Below are positions 3,063-15,975 of a stretch of DNA of 64,000 nt, one piece after another. The DNA lies in sequence record MZ358387; one strand, 5' to 3'. The stretch's first letter is position 1, and each line of letters begins with the position of its first letter. Under the pieces are notes generated by a model. That model saw only the letters and a list, made by a program, of their open reading frames with translations. It was not told the origin of the DNA and made no database searches. The position numbers and the translations under genes are program-made. Source of the DNA: Shigella virus Moo19.

Positions 3063-3209
3063 ATGAGCAAACTAAAAAACGCATTTATCCTGATTGTCAG
3101 TATCCTTGCACTTGTTACTTTGGTTTCCGTTCACATTGGAAAACCTCTGGTAAACACTGACTATGGTAATGGTCAAAAAGTAAAATCCATCCTGTTAGCG
3201 GATAAGTAA
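3063..3209 (+). CDS. Small putative membrane protein (48 aa, MSKLKNAFILIVSILALVTLVSV...)
   Basis: Hand-translated; hydrophobic N-terminal segment; below the 60-aa cutoff of the ORF track. Confidence 0.3.
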   Translation: MSKLKNAFILIVSILALVTLVSVHIGKPLVNTDYGNGQKVKSILLADK

Positions 3210-3276
3210 AAACCGCATCTAGAAACTGGGCTGTTCCACAGCTTACGGATACATTTCAACCAATTAGGAGGCATCC

Positions 3277-3492
3277 ATGAACGTAGAAAATATCCGTATA
3301 ATTGAGAATTGCTTTGGTGATAAACCAGTAGACCTCAGCAACGCAAGAAGGTCTACAGATGAAGAATACAGAGAGTTTTTATCCTTACTCGATGAATATC
3401 ATATGCAAGGGCATGTTGAATTACATGCCCATCTGCATAACTCAGGCTACTTCATGGATAAACTGGAAGCTGAGACAGGCTGTCCATTCTAA
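3277..3492 (+). CDS. Hypothetical protein (71 aa)
   Basis: ORF track; strong RBS aggagg upstream. Confidence 0.45.
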   Translation: MNVENIRIIENCFGDKPVDLSNARRSTDEEYREFLSLLDEYHMQGHVELHAHLHNSGYFMDKLEAETGCPF

Positions 3493-3499
3493 GTAAAGC

Positions 3500-3526
3500 A
3501 TTCCCTCTTAGGAGGGAATTAGCCAT
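3500..3526 (+). terminator. Terminator-like hairpin (attccctc-ttag-gagggaat)
   Basis: 8-bp inverted repeat read directly; weak T tract. Confidence 0.4.
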
Positions 3527-3528
3527 CT

Positions 3529-3547
3529 TTAGATAGTCAATCAAAAG
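3529..3547. promoter_or_regulatory. Second copy of 14-mer ttagatagtcaatc in an imperfect palindrome
   Basis: Identical 14-mer to 3015-3028. Confidence 0.4.
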
Positions 3548-3583
3548 TAGATTGTGATTCTACTTTAGTTCAACTTCAAAACC

Positions 3584-6787: not shown

Positions 6788-7167
6788 AAGAAATATTCGT
6801 ATTCGGTTCTAATCTGGCTGGTGTACACGGTGCTGGTGCAGCTAAGACTGCATATAAGAAGCACGGTGCTCGTTGGGGTATGGGCGTAGGCCATTATGGT
6901 TGCAGCTATGCAATTCCAACTAAAGACCAGAACATCAAAACAATGGAGTTGGTTGATATCGCTGTATTTGTATCTGCCTTCATCCTGTATGCAGCAGCAC
7001 ACCCAGAGTGGGACTTCAAAGTAACACGAGTAGGTTGTGGGCTGGCTGGCCTGTCTGATAAAGACATGGCATTCATGTTCTTACCTGCAACAGGTAATGT
7101 CATGTTTGATGAAGCATGGAAACCTTATTTAGGTGATACCTATAACTACTGGGGTACATTCGAATGA
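6784..7167 (+). CDS. Gly-rich Rossmann-like motif protein (FVFGSNLAGVHGAGAAKTA...GCGLAGL); possible nucleotide-binding (SLOG/macro-like?)
   Basis: Motif only; family assignment uncertain. Confidence 0.35.
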   Translation: MKEIFVFGSNLAGVHGAGAAKTAYKKHGARWGMGVGHYGCSYAIPTKDQNIKTMELVDIAVFVSAFILYAAAHPEWDFKVTRVGCGLAGLSDKDMAFMFLPATGNVMFDEAWKPYLGDTYNYWGTFE

Positions 7168-7436
7168 CCTATGAAGAATTATGGGCTGCTCAAGTAAGAA
7201 GTAAGGCGAGAGCCTTTGCTCATGTCTACAGCACATTGCAGCATCTTATTAAAAGCAGAACCAAAGCTGGACATATACATGGTTACTACAAAGAAGATTG
7301 TATTCCCGATGGTGACTACCTATGGGATAAAAGAATCCGTCACGAGAGTGACATTATAAAAGTGAATATTGCTATTCATTCATACCCACCAAGGGGTAAT
7401 CGCTACCTATCTATTCACTTTTATACAAAGCGTTAG
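7164..7436 (+). CDS. Hypothetical protein (90 aa)
   Basis: ORF track. Confidence 0.4.
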   Translation: MTYEELWAAQVRSKARAFAHVYSTLQHLIKSRTKAGHIHGYYKEDCIPDGDYLWDKRIRHESDIIKVNIAIHSYPPRGNRYLSIHFYTKR

Positions 7437-7441
7437 GTAAT

Positions 7442-7460
7442 AGCTGCTCCGCAGCTTTTG
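7442..7460 (+). promoter_or_regulatory. Tri-loop hairpin agctgc-TCC-gcagct followed by TTTT; candidate vRNAP promoter hairpin or short terminator, 30 nt upstream of RNAP II genes
   Basis: Perfect 6-bp stem, TCC loop; same GC-TCC-GC core as 2596 and 3584. Confidence 0.35.
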
Positions 7461-7488
7461 GTCATTAATCATATTTAGGAGATATGCG

Positions 7489-8307
7489 ATGTACTCATCT
7501 ATTGAACATCAGAAGCAACTGGAAACTCTGTTTAACAAGAATCAACTAATTCCTCGTATGAGGAAAGAGTTCGAGGACTCCGAAGAAATCCAATTCACTA
7601 AGTATTTTGAGCATATTGGCATCGACCCCAAACTGGGTATTGATGCAATGGTGCAAATTGCTCTGCATAAACGTGCTGACATTCCTACTATGGTTGGCTC
7701 ACTCATGAGTCACAGTCAGGATGCTCAGTACATAGCAGACACTCTGCTTAAGATGGCAGAGCACGACTGCTTTGACTTCGACCCAAGTATCGATAAGTTC
7801 ATCGTCATCTATGAAATCAGTGATGATGTACAACTGGAACTGGAAGCATTCCAGTATCCACTGCCTATCGTCAGTGAACCGAGAGAGGTTAAAGATAACC
7901 GTGGCTCAGGTTACTGGAATACCAAAGGCAGTATCATCCTCAAGAAGAACCACCATGAAATGGATGTGTGTCTCGACCACATTAACCGTATGAACAATCA
8001 ACGACTCAGCATCAACTGGGACGTTGCCAAGTTCGTCAAAAACTCATGGGCTAACCTGGATAAACCTAAAGAAGGGGAATCCCGTCAGGACTTTCAGAAG
8101 CGTGTACGTGCATTCGAGAAATACGACCGTACAGCAAAAGACGTTATGGAACTGGTGACTAAAGAAGGTAACAACTTCTCACTTGACCATAAGTATGACA
8201 AGCGTGGACGCACCTACTCACAGGGCTACCACATTAACTATCAAGGTACTAGCTGGAATAAAGCTGTTATCGAGTTCGCTGATAAGGAGTTGGTAAACGA
8301 TGAGTAG
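7489..8307 (+). CDS. Phage RNA polymerase II small subunit (N4 gp15-like)
   Basis: 272 aa; lies upstream of a T7-like RNAP C-terminal-half homolog; N4-like organisation; strong RBS aggag. Confidence 0.55.
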   Translation: MYSSIEHQKQLETLFNKNQLIPRMRKEFEDSEEIQFTKYFEHIGIDPKLGIDAMVQIALHKRADIPTMVGSLMSHSQDAQYIADTLLKMAEHDCFDFDPSIDKFIVIYEISDDVQLELEAFQYPLPIVSEPREVKDNRGSGYWNTKGSIILKKNHHEMDVCLDHINRMNNQRLSINWDVAKFVKNSWANLDKPKEGESRQDFQKRVRAFEKYDRTAKDVMELVTKEGNNFSLDHKYDKRGRTYSQGYHINYQGTSWNKAVIEFADKELVNDE

Positions 8308-8636: not shown

Positions 8637-9854
8637 ATGCAAACTTTTACCGCTAAACAGTACCTGGCTATCGATATCGCTAACAACTTTGGTCTGGATA
8701 AGAAGACCTGGGATGAGCGTTTGGCCTGGTTCGATGAGAACAAAGACAACCTCATGAACCAGTTAGAAGCAGCAGAGGAACCTGCTCTGTATTATGCAGG
8801 CGTTAAAGCCTATGAAGACATGCTGGCTGGTAAGCCTATTGGTTATACCATTGCACTGGATGCTACTGCATCTGGTCTGCAATTACTGGCATGTCTGACT
8901 GGTGACCGTAAGGCTGCTCAGTTGTGTAACGTAGTGAACTACTATGGTAGCGAAGGCAAGGCTCGTCGTAGCGATGCCTACACCGTTATCTACCGTACCA
9001 TGCTGGAAGCCGTAGGTCAGTCTTCTCGTGTTAAACGTGATGACTGTAAGCAGGCTGTAATGACTGCATTCTATGGCTCAGAAGCTAAGCCTAAAGAAGT
9101 GTTCGGTGAAGGTATTCTGTTGAAGACCTTTGAACACGTAATGGGTATCGAAGCACCTGGCCCGTGGGAACTGAACAAGTTCTATCTGCAATGTGGTAAC
9201 CCGGATGCAACCTCATATTTATGGGTTCTGCCGGATAACTTCCATTGTCAGATTAAGGTAATGGTTGACGAAGTACAGACCATTAACTTTATGAACAAGC
9301 CATATGACATCATTCGCAAAGTACAGGGTACTGAAGAGAAGACTCGTATGCTCTCTGCTAATACCACTCACTCAATTGATGGAATGGTAGTGCGTGAGAT
9401 GCTGCGTCGTTGTAACTATGATGCTGACCTGATTACCTATGTAAAACAGCTTTGCTATGGCGTACAGGAATCAAATGTATTCCTGCCAGAAAACGCTGAA
9501 ATGGTGCATGAGTTATGGAACCACTATGAACGTAGTGGTTTCCTGTCCATGCGTATCTGCGATTATCTGGATGCAGGCTCCATCGCTCTGGTTGACCGTC
9601 AGGTCATCCTTGAGATGCTGGAGACTCTGCCTAAGAAGCCATTCAAAGTACTGACTGTACATGACTGCTTCCGTTGCCATCCTAATTATGGCAATGACCT
9701 GCGTCGTCAATACAATCAGATTCTGTCTGACATTGCTAAATCCAACCTGCTGTCATTCATTCTGTCTCAGGTACTGGGACAAGAGTTCACTGCTGGTAAG
9801 CTGGACAATGACATGTGGAAAGATGTCTTAGACGCTGAGTACGCATTAAGCTAA
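8637..9854 (+). CDS. Phage RNA polymerase II large subunit, T7-like single-subunit RNAP catalytic half (N4 gp16-like)
   Basis: Motifs DATASGLQ (motif A-like), KQAVMTAFYGS (motif B-like), TVHDCF (motif C-like); ATG 8637 with aggag RBS (track ORF starts 8601). Confidence 0.75.
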   Translation: MQTFTAKQYLAIDIANNFGLDKKTWDERLAWFDENKDNLMNQLEAAEEPALYYAGVKAYEDMLAGKPIGYTIALDATASGLQLLACLTGDRKAAQLCNVVNYYGSEGKARRSDAYTVIYRTMLEAVGQSSRVKRDDCKQAVMTAFYGSEAKPKEVFGEGILLKTFEHVMGIEAPGPWELNKFYLQCGNPDATSYLWVLPDNFHCQIKVMVDEVQTINFMNKPYDIIRKVQGTEEKTRMLSANTTHSIDGMVVREMLRRCNYDADLITYVKQLCYGVQESNVFLPENAEMVHELWNHYERSGFLSMRICDYLDAGSIALVDRQVILEMLETLPKKPFKVLTVHDCFRCHPNYGNDLRRQYNQILSDIAKSNLLSFILSQVLGQEFTAGKLDNDMWKDVLDAEYALS

Positions 9855-9911: not shown

Positions 9912-10733
9912 ATGCCTGAGTTAAAAGTTGCTTTTAACAAAGACACCTATGTAGCTACCGTACTGGATGCCAGTGGTAGCGTTCCGAGTGGTTCTGTGAA
10001 CGTAGGTACTTTCTTCCATCCTGATGAGACTTACCCTGATAGTTATGTTATCTATCATGGTGTTCGTGAACTCCTGTATAAGCGTTCTGAAGTTGACCCG
10101 GCACAACCAGGCTTCTGGCCTGAGAACATTACCAACATGCAAGCTGTTACCATCGATAACAAGGCTACTGCACGTCTGGTACTGAATACCTCCCTACCTC
10201 GTGTAGTATCTACCATCGAAGGTGGTAAGGTTACTCTGTCTGTTGTTGCTCTGGGTGGTAAGGCTCCTCTTAAATACAAGTGGGAGTTCCGTGCACCTAA
10301 TGCTTCAACCTGGACTGCTGTATCTGGGCAGACTACTGCTAATCTGGTTCTGGATAATATCGATGCTGATAAAGCAGGTGAGTATAAAGTCACCGTTACC
10401 GATGCTGCCGGAACCAGTGTAGATAGTACTGCTCTGGTAGCTGTGGGTGCTTATCCACCACCAGCACTGACGGGCATTAAGGCTACGCCTACTTCCCTGT
10501 CTCTGTCTGTAGCTACTGACGCTGCTGGTAAAACTGTAGCTCTGTCTGCTATCCCGACTGATGCTGAACTGGGTACATTGTCTATTAAGACTGCTCCAGA
10601 TTCTGCTCGTGCTACTGCTACTATTTCTGGTTCTACTCTGACTGTTAAACCAGTGGCTGCTGGTGCTGCAACTTCTGTTGTAGTAACCAACGGTAAAGTT
10701 GATGTGACTATCACTATCAACGTTGCAGCATAA
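9912..10733 (+). CDS. Ig-like domain protein; probable capsid decoration protein (N4 gp17-like)
   Basis: Ig-like sequence features (GEYKVTVTDAAG; Big_2-like C-terminal repeats); position after RNAP II genes. Confidence 0.5.
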   Translation: MPELKVAFNKDTYVATVLDASGSVPSGSVNVGTFFHPDETYPDSYVIYHGVRELLYKRSEVDPAQPGFWPENITNMQAVTIDNKATARLVLNTSLPRVVSTIEGGKVTLSVVALGGKAPLKYKWEFRAPNASTWTAVSGQTTANLVLDNIDADKAGEYKVTVTDAAGTSVDSTALVAVGAYPPPALTGIKATPTSLSLSVATDAAGKTVALSAIPTDAELGTLSIKTAPDSARATATISGSTLTVKPVAAGAATSVVVTNGKVDVTITINVAA

Positions 10734-10754
10734 GCTGATAGTTTTGTTTGGCTA

Positions 10755-10784
10755 AAGCCCTCCTTGTGAGGGCTTTCTTGTATC
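10755..10784 (+). terminator. Terminator-like hairpin (aaagccctc-cttgt-gagggcttt)
   Basis: Read directly; T tract weak. Confidence 0.5.
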
Positions 10785-10799
10785 TATAGGAGAGTAAAA

Positions 10800-11114
10800 G
10801 TGACTAACAAATTACGTGTATGGCATATCCCGCAAGTGCCAATGAAAGCATTCTTTGTAGAATGCGATAGCATTCAGGAAGCTGTTAAAATTCGTAGTGC
10901 ACTGGCAGATTACGACTTGTTCCAGTATGAGAACAATGTCAAAGGTGATTACTGTAACGCCAGCGGTATTCATATCTGGGATGAAACTCTGTCTGACCAA
11001 GACCTCATCGATATGGAACTAGACGACCGTTGGGTTGACTGGTTCTATGAAGATGAAAATGAATACTTCGATGACCCAGAAGAATATCTGGAATGGCTTG
11101 CTACGCAATCCTGA
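10800..11114 (+). CDS. Small acidic protein (C-terminal half D/E/W/Y-rich); candidate DNA-mimic-type host-interference protein
   Basis: ORF track (GTG start with aggag RBS); composition; bracketed by terminators. Confidence 0.45.
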   Translation: MTNKLRVWHIPQVPMKAFFVECDSIQEAVKIRSALADYDLFQYENNVKGDYCNASGIHIWDETLSDQDLIDMELDDRWVDWFYEDENEYFDDPEEYLEWLATQS

Positions 11115-11161: not shown

Positions 11162-11190
11162 GACCTCCCTAAATGGGAGGTCTTTTTTTG
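11162..11190 (+). terminator. Rho-independent terminator (gacctccc-taaat-gggaggtc + T7)
   Basis: Read directly. Confidence 0.75.
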
Positions 11191-11216: not shown

Positions 11217-11417
11217 ATGAAATTTTCTGATTTACTCTGGGCAATTCTATTCCTGTTACTTACTGCCTTTATTTATGGGGTAGTACTGCCTAATGCAGTA
11301 TCTGCTTCAGATAGTATAAGTGTAGTAATTGGATTGATTGTTTCTATTATGTGGCCTGTTATAGCAGGTCGTGTTGTTTACCTTATCGTTAAGAAACGGA
11401 AGAAGAAACATGCGTAA
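11217..11417 (+). CDS. Small membrane protein (66 aa, two hydrophobic segments, basic C-terminus)
   Basis: ORF track frame 11115-11417; ATG 11217. Confidence 0.4.
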   Translation: MKFSDLLWAILFLLLTAFIYGVVLPNAVSASDSISVVIGLIVSIMWPVIAGRVVYLIVKKRKKKHA

Positions 11418-12246
11418 ATTTATTATAGGTTGTTTACTGGCAATAGTTGCAATGGCTAGTCTTACTGGTTGTTATCAACGAGTAGAGCCAGGTAATGTAG
11501 GTATTATCGTTAACCGTTTGGGTGACGATAAGGGCGTTGACCAACAAGTAAAAGGCGTAGGCCGTTACTGGATTGGTTGGAATGAAGACCTGTATACGTT
11601 CCCGACATTCAAACAGATGAAAACCTACGACGATAAGTTTTACTTCCAACTGTCGGACGGTACTCAAATTGGCCATCAACTGGCTATCAGCTATAAGGTC
11701 AACCCGACCAAAGTAGCGACCATCTTCCAGACCTACCGTAAAGGTGTCGATGAAATCACTGACCAGGATTTACGTCAGCGTATTGCCGATATCCTGAACC
11801 GTCAGGGTAACCTGATTAACACTGACAAGTTCATTGACGGTGGTAAGTCACGTTTGCTGGATAGTGTAGCTGATGCAGTTAAAAAAGAGATGGAGCCAGT
11901 CGGTATCGACATTATGGCTATCTCCTGGGTAGGTGCACCGGAATACCCGGACAACGTGAAGCGTGCAATTAACGCGAAAGTTGAAGCTACCCAGAAAACC
12001 CTGCAACGTGAGCAAGAAGTGCAACAGCGTATCGCTGAAGCAAATATGGCTCGTGAGCAAGCCAAAGGTGAAGCTGATGCCGTAGTACTGAAAGCAAAAG
12101 CAGAAGCTGATGCTATTAAGCTGCGTGGTGATGCACTTCGTGAAAACCCTGGTGTAATGGAACTGGAAGCAATCAACAAGTGGAATGGTGTATTACCAAC
12201 CACAATGATTCCAGGTGCAGCCACACCATTTGTGCCTGTTAAATAA
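11410..12246 (+). CDS. SPFH/band-7 (prohibitin/HflC-like) lipoprotein
   Basis: Lipobox LTGC after signal peptide; SPFH-like core and C-terminal coiled-coil; ATG 11410 with ggaag RBS. Confidence 0.65.
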   Translation: MRKFIIGCLLAIVAMASLTGCYQRVEPGNVGIIVNRLGDDKGVDQQVKGVGRYWIGWNEDLYTFPTFKQMKTYDDKFYFQLSDGTQIGHQLAISYKVNPTKVATIFQTYRKGVDEITDQDLRQRIADILNRQGNLINTDKFIDGGKSRLLDSVADAVKKEMEPVGIDIMAISWVGAPEYPDNVKRAINAKVEATQKTLQREQEVQQRIAEANMAREQAKGEADAVVLKAKAEADAIKLRGDALRENPGVMELEAINKWNGVLPTTMIPGAATPFVPVK

Positions 12247-12252
12247 CAATAA

Positions 12253-12282
12253 AACCCCCAGACATTGCTGGGGGTTTTTACG
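12253..12282 (+). terminator. Rho-independent terminator (aaccccca-loop-tgggggtt + T tract)
   Basis: Read directly. Confidence 0.7.
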
Positions 12283-12295
12283 TCTGGAAAGTGTA

Positions 12296-12646
12296 ATGGA
12301 AAAGAACCGCAGGAAGACACTCATTGAGCGTCTGCTTGCCCGTATCAAGATAATGGATATGGGCTATACCGTTAATGGTCAGCCAAGCCTATGCCACATC
12401 TGGACTGGTTCCCACTCTGGGAATGGTCGAGGTGGTCAATATGGCAGGATTTCCGTGAATGGAGTTACCTCTGCTACACATATTGTGGCCTATACCCACT
12501 ATCACGGTTACATCCCTTGCAAAATGCAGGTAGACCATCTCTGTAATAACCGTCTGTGCTGTAACCCGGAACATCTCGAACTGGTGACTCACCAAGAGAA
12601 CCAGAGAAGAAGAGCTGCACGCCAAACTAAAGGTAAAAAGAAATGA
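12296..12646 (+). CDS. HNH homing endonuclease (HNH_3 type)
   Basis: Motifs CHIWTGS...GYI...VDHLCNNRLCCNPEHL...HQEN; ATG 12296 downstream of terminator. Confidence 0.7.
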   Translation: MEKNRRKTLIERLLARIKIMDMGYTVNGQPSLCHIWTGSHSGNGRGGQYGRISVNGVTSATHIVAYTHYHGYIPCKMQVDHLCNNRLCCNPEHLELVTHQENQRRRAARQTKGKKK

Positions 12647-12813
12647 TGAACTATTTAGGTGGTATTACTCTTGGTTGGCTTATTACCGCATTAGTTTTTG
12701 TATATCTGCCAGATGAGCATATTGCTAAAGCAAAAGCCATGAAAGAAACTTGCGAACAAAAACTTTCTCGTGAGCAGCAATGTGTAATGCAATTCGTACC
12801 GGAGAAAAAATGA
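12643..12813 (+). CDS. Small membrane protein (56 aa)
   Basis: Hand-translated; hydrophobic N-terminus; overlapping start/stop with neighbours. Confidence 0.3.
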   Translation: MMNYLGGITLGWLITALVFVYLPDEHIAKAKAMKETCEQKLSREQQCVMQFVPEKK

Positions 12814-13007
12814 CCTTAACTCGTACTCAACAGTCTACCCTGCGAATGATTGCAGGTGGTTTAACTCGTGTTGCACCGAATAACAAAACAGCCCTTGCTT
12901 TGAAAAAAGCAGGGCTGATTACATTCAATCCACCTTTCGGGTGGGTATGTACTAAAGCTGGTCTTGAAAAGAACCAGGAACTGATAGGTATGCGTAAGCC
13001 TACCTGA
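12810..13007 (+). CDS. Hypothetical protein (65 aa)
   Basis: ORF track frame 12780-13007; ATG 12810 overlaps upstream stop. Confidence 0.35.
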   Translation: MTLTRTQQSTLRMIAGGLTRVAPNNKTALALKKAGLITFNPPFGWVCTKAGLEKNQELIGMRKPT

Positions 13008-13732: not shown

Positions 13733-13743
13733 GGAATGAAATA

Positions 13744-14799
13744 ATGTCAAACATCGATTCACTTGTCGTGTGTAACTCAAGACAAGCTCGTAAATTTATC
13801 ATCCGTGCATTGCAGGCAGGTAACGTACCGTTCCTGACCTCCTCACCCGGTATGGGTAAATCTGCAATGATTCATAGCATTGCAGAAGAATTTGGCATGA
13901 AGCTGATTGACCATCGTCTGTCTACTTCTGCCCCAGAAGACCTGTCTGGTCTGCCACGTTTCCGTCCAGATGGACGTGCAGAGTTTGCACCGTTTGCAGA
14001 CCTGTTCCCACTGGAGGGTGACGAAGTACCCGAAGGTTATAACGGCTGGCTCCTATTCCTTGATGAGTTCAACTCAGCCAAGAAAGAAGTTGTTGCTGCT
14101 GCATACAAACTGATTCTCGACCGTATGACTGGTCAGAAGAAGCTGCATCCTCAAGTGATGATTGTATGTGCTGGTAACAAACAAACTGACCGTGCAATCG
14201 TTAACCCAATGGGTACTGCAATGCAGTCTCGTGTTGTGCATCTGGAAATGGAAATCAACTTCGACATCTTTGTCGAAGACGTAATGATTCCTCAGAAATG
14301 GGATGAGCGTTTAGTTGCATTCCTCCATGCTAATACGTCGTATCTGCATGACTTCGACCCGGCACACAAGAACAAAACGTTCTGCTGTCCTCGTACCTGG
14401 GACTTCGTTAACGAAGACCTAAAGAACCAGCCTCCTGGTGCTCTGCCTGATGAAGATTCTATCTTCTATGCTGGTCACGTCACTGCTGGTAAGGCAACTG
14501 AGTTCGTTCAGTTTACTCAGGTATATAACCAACTGGTCACTATTGAGCAAGTGGTTAAAGACCCTAAAGAGGCACGTTTACCGAAAGATAACAACCTCTG
14601 CTGGGCAACTGTTACCTATCTGGCTAATAAGACCACGGTAGATAACTTCCCGGATGTAGTTGAGTATATCCAGCGTCTGGATAAGATGACTCACCGCATC
14701 CTGTACTTCCGTACTGTGCATAAAATCGTACCAGATGTTACTGGCCTCCCTGAATGGCGTAAAGCTGGTGCAGAACTGTCTCGCTACCTACACGGATAA
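13744..14799 (+). CDS. MoxR-like AAA+ ATPase
   Basis: Walker A SSPGMGKS, Walker B LLFLDEF; ATG 13744 with aagga RBS. Confidence 0.75.
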   Translation: MSNIDSLVVCNSRQARKFIIRALQAGNVPFLTSSPGMGKSAMIHSIAEEFGMKLIDHRLSTSAPEDLSGLPRFRPDGRAEFAPFADLFPLEGDEVPEGYNGWLLFLDEFNSAKKEVVAAAYKLILDRMTGQKKLHPQVMIVCAGNKQTDRAIVNPMGTAMQSRVVHLEMEINFDIFVEDVMIPQKWDERLVAFLHANTSYLHDFDPAHKNKTFCCPRTWDFVNEDLKNQPPGALPDEDSIFYAGHVTAGKATEFVQFTQVYNQLVTIEQVVKDPKEARLPKDNNLCWATVTYLANKTTVDNFPDVVEYIQRLDKMTHRILYFRTVHKIVPDVTGLPEWRKAGAELSRYLHG

Positions 14800-14802
14800 A
14801 AC

Positions 14803-15975
14803 ATGAACCAGATACCTCAGCACACTTTGACCGACGAGCAACTCATGCGAGAGTATGACCGTACTCAGGCTCAGGCTTTTCTGGGCAAGAGTGCTGCGTT
14901 CTTTGGCTCACTACTGTGTAGTCTTAAATTCTCCTGGCAACGGGAGAATTGCGATACCGCTCAGACCGATGGTACTGAGCTTCAGTTTAACCCTGACTTC
15001 TTTGTCTGGTTAAAGCCTGAAACAAGAAAGACCGTGCTTATGCACGAGCTTTGGCATGTAGGTTATCTGCATGGTGTCCGTCAGGGTTCTCGTGACCCAG
15101 AGTTCTGGAACTATGCCTGTGACATCTACATTAACAACCAGTTAGAAGACGACGGCTACTCCTTCGAGGGAGTAGAGAACTGCTGGAAAGACCCAAAATA
15201 TAAAGGTTGGGTCGAAGAGGATATTTACGATGACCTTATGAAGAATCCCCACAAGAAGCCGAAGGCATTGGGGGCATTTGGAACAGGGTCTGGTGGAGAT
15301 ATGGTTAGCCCCACTTCGGGTTCATCTCCTGCAACTATCGTCAACAACGTAGTACGTGCACTGCAACAACAAAAACTGGCTGGTGGCACACTAGCTGGTA
15401 CTGGTGCAGGCCGTATGCAAGAGGTGATTACCCAATTCCTCAAGCCAGTAGTTCCGTGGCAGCAAGTCCTGTTCGACTTCTTCACTGACATTGATGACAC
15501 CAAGTACACCTGGGCAAGACCTAATCGTCGTTACCCGGATATGTACCTGCCATCTCTGGAAGATGATGAAGGTCGCTTACGACATCTGGCCTATTTCGAG
15601 GATGTCTCTGGTTCCATTAGCAATGCTGACTCTCTGCGTTTTAACTCAGAAGTGGCCTATGTTAAGAGCCAGTTTAATCCGAAGAAAATGACCCTACTCA
15701 CTTTCGATACTGTTATTCAGGACGAAATCGATATCACCGAAGAGGATACCTTTGAGGAGATTAAGATTACAGGCCGTGGAGGTACTTGCCTCAAGCCTGT
15801 TCGTGAGTGGATTATCAAGAACAAGCCAACTGCTGCTATCATCTTCTCTGATATGCACGTTGCACCTATGGAAGAACTCCCGTTTGATATACCTATCATC
15901 TGGGTTTGTTTGGGAAACCGACATGCCACCGTGCCTTTCGGTGAAATCTTACATATTGACCCAGGAATGAAATAA
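14803..15975 (+). CDS. VWA domain protein with N-terminal metallopeptidase-like HExxH (DUF2201-like)
   Basis: MIDAS-like DVSGSIS; HELWHVGYLH; typical partner of MoxR ATPases. Confidence 0.7.
   Translation: MNQIPQHTLTDEQLMREYDRTQAQAFLGKSAAFFGSLLCSLKFSWQRENCDTAQTDGTELQFNPDFFVWLKPETRKTVLMHELWHVGYLHGVRQGSRDPEFWNYACDIYINNQLEDDGYSFEGVENCWKDPKYKGWVEEDIYDDLMKNPHKKPKALGAFGTGSGGDMVSPTSGSSPATIVNNVVRALQQQKLAGGTLAGTGAGRMQEVITQFLKPVVPWQQVLFDFFTDIDDTKYTWARPNRRYPDMYLPSLEDDEGRLRHLAYFEDVSGSISNADSLRFNSEVAYVKSQFNPKKMTLLTFDTVIQDEIDITEEDTFEEIKITGRGGTCLKPVREWIIKNKPTAAIIFSDMHVAPMEELPFDIPIIWVCLGNRHATVPFGEILHIDPGMK

Follow-up and report, generated by a model that had tools for sequence, protein, structure and literature searches.

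Does the HNH endonuclease gene of the N4-like phage Shigella virus Moo19 (MZ358387) mark a site of recent horizontal acquisition? The preliminary description of this locus proposed that it does, and that the preceding SPFH lipoprotein gene and the small ORFs that follow (to position 13007) might be its recently acquired cargo. The analyzed window, by which we mean the whole 64-kb stretch of DNA, is an N4-like phage genome (Schitoviridae, Enquatrovirinae). Among sequenced phages, Escherichia phage Jgk1 is the closest to it, with ~80% nucleotide identity over 87% of the window, and the next relatives are Gamaleyavirus phages such as G7C (~78–79% nucleotide identity).

The gene, which looks expressed, is an intact ORF of 116 amino acids on the plus strand, opening with the ATG at 12296 and closing with the TGA at 12644–12646. 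The mechanical extension of this ORF in the ORF list leads to a GTG at 12215. This upstream start would overlap the 3′ end of the SPFH gene and the terminator, and both the nucleotide and the protein similarity to five relatives open at codon 1–2 of the ATG-12296 reading. Since the similarity opens there, the GTG start is unsupported and the ATG at 12296 is the correct one. The gene is free-standing, as described earlier, with its own ATG after the terminator and outside any intron or intein, and its stop codon overlaps the ATG of the next gene (ATGA). Its position directly downstream of a terminator was likewise confirmed: a hairpin with a T5 tract lies directly 3′ of the SPFH stop codon (12244–12246), and the gap from it to the HNH ATG is 17 nt. 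The repeat search returned this hairpin as an inverted repeat of 11 nt with 100% complementarity. The terminator scan placed it on the minus strand, an effect of the A4 and T4 on either side, which lengthen the stem. On the plus strand it is a normal intrinsic terminator that appears to be bidirectional. The promoter and terminator scan gave no sigma-70 promoter between the terminator and the HNH ATG. A profile search in all six frames detected no paralogue of the HNH family elsewhere in the 64-kb window, and no direct or inverted repeats delimit the gene, the matches being short and at chance level. A 14-nt stretch in the start region of the HNH gene resembles part of the conserved 3′ block of the downstream 56-codon ORF (orf56); this likeness, missing in Jgk1, N4, and KP8, was rejected as a chance match.

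The features of the region are summarized in the table. The order of genes in Moo19 is RNAP2 (gp16), the gp17 Hoc-like gene, the exclusion gene, gp19, the gp20 SPFH gene, the terminator, the HNH gene, four small ORFs, the gp24 ATPase gene, and gp25, and the corresponding order in N4 is gp19, gp20, gp21, gp22 (HNH), gp23, and gp24. The superinfection-exclusion-like gene is present in only some relatives. The gp19 homologue shares 62% amino acid identity with N4 gp19 and only 40% with those of the phages SABI and Tribble. Members of the orf56 family lie directly 3′ of the HNH gene in Moo19, Jgk1, the IMG/VR relative, and KP8-like phages, and not in N4; the last 33 nt of orf56 (12781–12813) are conserved at the nucleotide level. 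Homologues of the next ORF, orf65, occur in Jgk1 (77% amino acid identity) and Gamaleyavirus (43–48%), and in KP8-like phages they lie upstream of the HNH gene. The HNH gene is a self-contained module of one ORF in a hypervariable accessory interval that extends from RNAP2 to the gp24 ATPase gene.

Table. Features of the RNAP2–ATPase interval of Moo19 and the evidence for each.
Feature	Positions	Strand	Evidence and remarks
RNA polymerase II subunit, N4 gp16-like	8637–9854	+	tblastn: N4 66% aa, Jgk1 85%, KP8 70%; conserved gene bounding the variable interval on the left
Hoc-like Ig-domain head decoration protein, N4 gp17 homologue	9912–10733	+	phrog_2973 E 3e-73; Pfam Ig_3
Terminator-like hairpin 3′ of the Hoc-like gene	10754–10776		Terminator scan
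P22 gp17-type superinfection-exclusion-like gene, N4 gp18 homologue	10800–11114	+	Pfam PF17420 E 2.9e-46
Terminator-like hairpin 3′ of the superinfection-exclusion-like gene	11162–11182		Terminator scan
Small membrane protein, N4 gp19 homologue	11217–11417	+	phrog_1130 E 4.3e-16; overlaps the SPFH gene start
SPFH/Band-7 lipoprotein, N4 gp20 homologue	11410–12246	+	Pfam Band_7 E 1.2e-22; phrog_200
Intrinsic terminator hairpin	12251–12279	+	A4-CCCCCAG (stem 12255–12261), loop ACATTG, CTGGGGG (stem 12268–12274)-T5 (12275–12279); between the SPFH and HNH genes
Shine-Dalgarno-like GGAAAG, weak candidate	12286–12291	+	4 nt 5′ of the ATG; putative, read from the sequence
HNH_3/His-Me-finger endonuclease, 116 aa, N4 gp22 ortholog (assigned by sequence)	12296–12646	+	Pfam, PHROG, 57-sequence alignment, AF2, fold matches, dN/dS
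Single-pass membrane protein, 56 aa (orf56)	12643–12813	+	phrog_7508; ATG overlaps the HNH stop
65-aa ORF (orf65), start MTLTRTQQ overlapping the preceding stop	12810–13007	+	phrog_7665
AAA ATPase, N4 gp24-like	13741–14799	+	tblastn, 801 records; conserved right anchor of the variable interval

The 116-aa product matched Pfam HNH_3 (PF13392) with an E value of 3.8e-19 and 68.5 bits against a cut-off of 24.8, over profile positions 2–46 of 46, and the clear HNH_3 motifs reported earlier were thereby borne out. It also scored 28.2 bits (cut-off 27) with zf-His_Me_endon (PF05551), the I-PpoI-type zinc-loop family, and over residues 1–115 it matched PHROG phrog_1872 'endonuclease' (E 4e-45). On these profile scores, the family match is far beyond chance. 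Conservation of the residues was scored in an alignment of 57 homologues. C33, W36, G38, H62, G71, D80, H81, C83, C88, L94, V97, and N102 were invariant; N90, P91, H93, and H99 were near-invariant, with N90, H93, and H99 conserved in at least 90% of the sequences. These residues make up the D-H...N...N/H catalytic pattern of HNH enzymes together with Cys/His positions suited to structural zinc.

The AF2 model of the protein (pLDDT 92.4) consists of an N-terminal helix, a small antiparallel sheet, a beta-beta-alpha finger, and a basic C-terminal helix, and has the beta-beta-alpha-metal fold. A sequence search of the PDB with the 116-aa protein gave no meaningful match, and fold comparison was used instead; it returned moderate matches to I-PpoI and I-HmuI (TM ~0.47, Foldseek E 6e-3). 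According to the model, the whole protein would resemble the DNA-recognition sheet and the beta-beta-alpha-metal site of these site-specific homing endonucleases. D80/H81 would serve as metal ligand and general base, N102 as a metal ligand, N90 would stabilize the finger, and C33, C83, C88, and H93 would hold structural zinc. The protein would thus be predicted to cleave DNA in a metal-dependent manner and, like I-PpoI and I-HmuI, to read the sequence with its N-terminal sheet. In regard to other domains, only HNH_3 and zf-His_Me_endon were matched, and no separate DNA-binding domain (AP2, NUMOD, or HTH) was found in the 116 residues; the I-PpoI-like N-terminal sheet may stand in for one. Most characterized phage HNH_3 homing enzymes carry a separate DNA-binding domain, which the gp22 type does not. 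The designation as a homing endonuclease stands with respect to structural type, as given by these fold matches, whereas homing activity itself is what we infer.

Small HNH proteins are also known as terminase-associated packaging cofactors of the HK97 gp74 or GVE2 type, and the small size (116 aa) and the HNH motif of the Moo19 protein are compatible with such a role. The gene, however, lies in the early/middle accessory region from RNAP2 to the gp24 ATPase gene and not beside the terminase and portal genes, and it is missing from many family members with the same packaging system. A function in packaging is therefore very improbable, and over its whole length the modeled protein resembles a site-specific homing nuclease in minimal form, not a terminase cofactor.

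Sequence comparison assigns the gene as the ortholog of N4 gp22. The Moo19 protein shares 88.7% amino acid identity with N4 gp22 over residues 2–115 (98% of the length) and 96.6% with the copy in Jgk1. N4 gp22 (YP_950500, annotated 'endonuclease') was called a 'putative homing endonuclease' in print in 2009 (Zhao et al., PMC2784036), and the literature searched contained annotation-level mentions of N4 gp22 and its family and no functional study. The two genes agree in length class, in their place in the RNAP2–ATPase interval, in strand and orientation, and in the invariant residues. They differ in that the Moo19 gene directly follows the SPFH terminator, whereas N4 has an extra gene (gp21) in between, and in that the downstream gene belongs to the orf56 family in Moo19 and is gp23 in N4. 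The gp22-type HNH family was thus already annotated, though uncharacterized, and the Moo19 gene is an ordinary further member of it.

Three other enzymes serve for comparison. I-HmuI, the intron-encoded HNH nicking homing endonuclease of SPO1 (PDB 1U3E), is also a member of Pfam HNH_3. I-HmuI has 174 aa with C-terminal helical and HTH DNA-binding modules, whereas the Moo19 protein ends after the HNH helix and a basic tail, is encoded by a free-standing gene and not within an intron, and has conserved Cys/His residues suggesting zinc sites. I-PpoI, a His-Cys box homing endonuclease (PDB 1A73/1A74), shares 18% identity with the Moo19 protein at a TM of ~0.47; unlike it, I-PpoI (162 aa) comes from a eukaryotic nuclear intron and acts as a domain-swapped dimer. 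The third, an example of the free-standing HNH_3+AP2 homing endonucleases of phages, is encoded by G7C, which has a free-standing 158-aa HNH_3+AP2 ORF between the ATPase and vWA (gp25) genes with no counterpart in Moo19. The G7C enzyme resembles the gp22 type in its HNH_3 catalytic domain, its free-standing gene, and its insertion in the same genomic neighborhood. It differs in its AP2 domain, in its 37% identity to the Moo19 protein, and in its sporadic occurrence (one of the sampled relatives), whereas enzymes of the gp22 type occur family-wide, have no AP2 domain, and are far more strongly constrained.

We examined the distribution of the gp22-type gene across the family. It occupies the RNAP2–ATPase interval in N4, Kaypoctavirus (KP8), Rothmandenesvirinae (phiAxp-3), Pokkenvirus (Pokken), Erskinevirinae (Kuerle), and the distant SABI/Tribble lineage. 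Among 80 ATPase-anchored IMG/VR loci, 16 have an HNH gene within 8 kb of the ATPase gene, and in these it is always inside the interval. The HNH protein was matched at E ≤ 1e-15 in 240 phage records, all of 62–88 kb and with one copy each; for comparison, a full-length match to the gp24-type ATPase was found in 464 phage records. The HNH gene is found at other loci in two phages, just 5′ of rIIA in Litunavirus LIT1 and just 3′ of rIIB in roseophage EE36phi1, and has therefore been relocated at deep timescales. Its distribution is patchy (16 of 80 loci, ~240 of ~460 records, three different loci), its neighbors differ between subfamilies, and no single conserved target gene is evident. From these comparisons, the HNH gene is an old resident of the interval and not a recent arrival.

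The dN/dS values of the HNH gene were 0.02–0.07, at or below those of every backbone gene compared: RNAP2 (0.14–0.19), ATPase (0.07–0.26), and vWA (0.09–0.16); the lowest vWA value matches the highest HNH value to within rounding. In 171 of 171 genome pairs, the HNH protein showed higher conservation than either RNAP2 or the ATPase. A non-functional remnant of a former mobile element, for which nothing beyond the general tendency of homing genes to decay would speak, is already refuted by these values; together with the intact ORF, the invariant catalytic residues, and the confident predicted fold, they leave this reading a negligible probability. The same constraint favors another reading, in which the gp22 family is a domesticated nuclease that is kept for a benefit to the phage and is not spread by homing. 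Such an enzyme might cut or nick the DNA of competitor phages or of the host, or might process phage DNA for recombination or replication. Its single copy in ~240 records of Schitoviridae size, the use of the same interval across several subfamilies, and the lack of an extra DNA-binding domain also favor this reading, which we regard as possible but rather unlikely.

Synonymous sites were compared to separate constraint from transfer. The identity at four-fold sites between Moo19 and N4 was 59% for the HNH gene, 55% for RNAP2, and 49% for the ATPase gene. Between Moo19 and the IMG/VR contig UViG_3300024308_000028, the values were 65%, 68%, and 58%, respectively, and within the KP8 group they were 71–80% for the HNH gene and 71–84% for RNAP2 and the ATPase gene. 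The synonymous divergence of the HNH gene is backbone-like in all close pairs except Moo19 and Jgk1, and in following the backbone it points to vertical descent, a further argument for a domesticated nuclease. The 89% protein identity to N4, against 63–66% for the backbone, might suggest a recent transfer from N4-like phages. This was rejected: the four-fold identity of 59% is close to that of the backbone genes (42–55%), and the excess protein identity therefore reflects constraint and not recent transfer. The correlation between HNH and backbone at depth is weak and positive (rho 0.33–0.40), as calculated from pairwise identities in which those of HNH are compressed to 57–70%. Within Enquatrovirinae, the history of the gene is most simply explained by vertical descent and a loss in Gamaleyavirus.

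The pair of Moo19 and Jgk1 gave a different result. Four-fold sites were identical at 42 of 48 positions in the HNH gene and at 320 of 515 in four backbone genes (Fisher p 2.5e-4), and the dS values were 0.28 and 0.78–1.06, respectively. The 351-nt HNH block is 93.7% identical at the nucleotide level, which places it in the top 0.5% of 351-nt windows genome-wide (mean 79.7%, SD 6.5%). These values indicate a more recent exchange confined to the HNH ORF, and no other single finding speaks as strongly for continued movement of the gene. An HNH copy younger than the backbone argues against domestication without spread.

A comparison of the locus among relatives, set beforehand as the test of the proposal, showed that it differs between them; an identical locus in all of them, which would have refuted the proposal, was not found. 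The similarity of Moo19 to Jgk1, UViG_3300024308_000028, N4, and KP8 extends from the start codon of the HNH gene to its stop codon, and the sequences 5′ of the gene are unrelated in all five genomes. The upstream neighbor is the SPFH gene with its terminator in Moo19, a 70-aa ORF in Jgk1, Hoc in the IMG/VR contig, an orf65-like gene in KP8, and gp21 in N4. No co-conversion tract was visible around the gene, the flanks of the HNH-positive genomes being unrelated just outside the ORF. The ATPase is 80–90% identical to that of Moo19 in 54 records of the phage collection, and an HNH protein more than 90% identical is found only in Jgk1. The gene is missing from all of the sampled loci of Gamaleyavirus-like phages, the large group of relatives nearest to Moo19. 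Between the HNH-positive UViG_3300024308_000028 and the HNH-negative ECBP1-like, L011, and PGN829.1 phages, the indel is exactly the HNH ORF; both have the same terminator hairpin on the upstream side and the same small membrane-protein gene on the downstream side. At this indel the HNH ORF occupies the ribosome-binding position, and its stop codon overlaps the next ATG. The HNH gene is thus a precise presence/absence polymorphism with respect to Gamaleyavirus-like relatives, and its translation is coupled to that of the small membrane-protein gene that follows. We also considered the divergent 5′ part of orf56 as an 'immunity' allele tied to the HNH gene, and rejected it: L015, which lacks the HNH gene, has the allele type of the HNH-positive Jgk1 and UViG genomes.

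The SPFH gene has a history of its own. The Moo19 protein (gp20) shares 97% amino acid identity with that of Enterobacter phage SABI (90.6% at the nucleotide level) and 96% with that of Klebsiella phage Tribble_ER49 (84%), and only 81% with that of N4 (75%), whereas RNAP2 and the ATPase of SABI and Tribble_ER49 are only 31–37% identical to those of Moo19 (SABI 33–37%). The SPFH gene was therefore exchanged horizontally with SABI/Tribble-like phages, and to this extent the earlier proposal of recently acquired flanks was right. It did not hold that the SPFH gene came with the HNH gene. The block of high identity is exactly the gp20 ORF (11406–12246); it stops short of the terminator and does not adjoin the HNH gene. 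In SABI and Tribble, the HNH gene product is 57–63% identical, and the gene lies two genes upstream of gp19, not downstream of gp20. With the block limited to the gp20 ORF and the SABI/Tribble HNH gene placed elsewhere, the event was a one-gene allele swap and not the transport of HNH cargo.

These data bear directly on the possibility that a homing endonuclease of recent arrival carried with it, or helped the phage to gain, the SPFH unit and the small ORFs to 13007. The interval is mosaic; gp20 is 97% identical to that of SABI despite a backbone of 31–37%; gp19 and gp20 are missing from Jgk1, UViG_3300024308, and Gamaleyavirus; and the HNH gene and gp19/gp20 lie near each other in N4, Moo19, and SABI/Tribble. 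However, the HNH gene is old and syntenic, and the high-identity block is gp20 alone, with unrelated sequence before the HNH gene and a gp19 of only 40% identity. The distant HNH copies of SABI and Tribble, upstream of the SPFH gene, also disagree with a joint arrival. The orf56 and orf65 families are found across Enquatrovirinae, HNH-less genomes included, and the small ORFs cannot be called HNH cargo. In HNH-less genomes, the interval varies equally in gene content and length (741–1913 nt from Hoc to the ATPase gene), and a causal link between the HNH gene and mosaicism is therefore not demonstrated. We regard the joint arrival as improbable. The interval is a general hotspot of single-gene mosaicism, and the HNH gene, which is old, syntenic, and backbone-like in synonymous divergence in most pairs, does not mark its present neighbors as recently acquired.

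On balance, we lean towards the reading that the HNH gene encodes a long-resident, free-standing endonuclease of the homing type. The gene would usually be passed on vertically under strong purifying selection, would have been lost in some lineages (Gamaleyavirus) and, at deep timescales, moved to a place beside rIIA/rIIB in others (Litunavirus and roseophages), and would now and then be exchanged between co-infecting relatives, as between Moo19 and Jgk1. In a mixed infection, the enzyme would cut HNH-less genomes near the locus, and recombinational repair would then copy the gene in. Such homing-type spread is what the population pattern suggests, and cleavage by the putative enzyme and its target site are presumed. 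Strong purifying selection, one copy per genome, a mostly vertical history, and the lack of both co-conversion tracts and a common neighboring target gene oppose a purely selfish reading.

Domestication is compatible with homing, and the two are not mutually exclusive. The gp22 family may, tentatively, be a Schitoviridae-specific, I-PpoI-like mini-endonuclease that has been domesticated for a role in infection, such as the exclusion of related co-infecting phages or DNA processing. Against this, the entire Gamaleyavirus-like clade and about half of the family lack the gene, which is hence dispensable, it forms a clean single-ORF indel with respect to HNH-less relatives, and the closest folds are those of site-specific homing enzymes. 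If the gp22 family were domesticated, the hypervariable neighboring genes would result from cutting by gp22.

These results confirm the annotation and indicate that an HNH gene alone is no flag for recently acquired neighbors; the direct value of this is small. The locus is a clear case of exchange one gene at a time, with the gp20 SPFH gene swapped between phages with backbones that are 31–37% identical, which is useful to know in choosing markers for the phylogeny of Schitoviridae. The gp22 family is single-copy, family-wide, and strongly constrained, and, together with a clean pair of HNH-positive and HNH-negative alleles in N4-like phages of E. coli, it offers a convenient setting for distinguishing homing from competitor exclusion and from other roles.

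The variable interval between the RNAP2 and gp24 ATPase genes is made of separately terminated cassettes, because three successive units each close with their own terminator-like hairpin. The terminator scan gave 7 terminator-like sites, as against 2.6 expected from shuffles.

Terminator-like hairpins that close successive units of the variable interval (window positions)
Feature	Position	Location	Source
Terminator-like hairpin	10754-10776	After the Hoc-like gene	Terminator scan
Terminator-like hairpin	11162-11182	After the exclusion-like gene	Terminator scan
Terminator-like hairpin	12251-12279	After the gp19-gp20 SPFH pair	Terminator scan

The gp20 SPFH ORF (window 11406-12246) was 90.6% identical in nucleotides and 97% in amino acids to that of Enterobacter phage vB_Ecl_SABI, and 84% and 96% identical, respectively, to that of Klebsiella phage Tribble_ER49. 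The RNAP2 and ATPase of these two phages shared just 31–37% amino acid identity with those of the window, and gp19, which adjoins gp20, was just 40% identical to its counterparts in the same phages. These identities mark gp20 as a clean single-gene horizontal swap, with distant Schitoviridae as partners. The same 90.6% SPFH match as in the 76-kb phage SABI was also observed at 199942-200782 of Enterobacter phage SonariX (PQ898399.1). The length of this record, 248.7 kb, is odd for an N4-like segment and suggests that the assembly may be concatenated or mixed.

We compared the window with its nearest sequenced relative, Jgk1, in 351-nt windows, which gave a genome mean identity of 79.7%. Besides the HNH gene, only the stretches at approximately 35.8–37.6 kb and 46.5–46.7 kb reached 92–98% identity; they might represent additional segments that either were exchanged recently or are under strong constraint. 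In the Jgk1 locus (L002), the reading frame of the exclusion-like gene (3114-3578) spans 154 aa, of which 50 form an extension at the N terminus that contains a GxxGKS-like motif; the extension may simply reflect an in-frame start further upstream. Jgk1 also carries an additional signal-peptide ORF of 109 aa (L002 4715-5044), which has no counterpart in the window and gave a weak, sub-threshold match to Rap1a-immunity.

In G7C (locus L012), a free-standing gene for a 158-aa HNH_3+AP2 endonuclease (7057-7533) lies between the ATPase and gp25 genes, approximately 1 kb from the HNH locus under study. This gene was absent from the ATPase/gp25 junction in the window and in every sampled relative except G7C, and is a classic sporadic homing-endonuclease insertion. 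The N4 gp25 homologue itself (window 14803-15975) is a DUF2201 metallopeptidase and VWA-like protein (Pfam E values of 2.3e-64 and 1.3e-35). Its homologues are labeled "HNH endonuclease" in several RefSeq records, apparently through an annotation error that has been propagated.

Downstream of the HNH gene, the 56-aa membrane-protein ORF (12643-12813) ends in a 33-nt block (12781-12813), TGTGTAATGCA(A/G)TTCGTACCGGAGAA(A/G)AAATGA, which encodes CVMQFVPEKK. For the 5′ two-thirds of the gene, three or more highly divergent types of allele exist (38–41% amino acid identity). At the nucleotide level, every Gamaleyavirus-like, Jgk1-like, or KP8-type locus with a homologue of the ORF conserves the block, in HNH+ and HNH- loci alike; no homologue was found in N4. 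This block might serve as an anchor for recombination or as an element for translational coupling.
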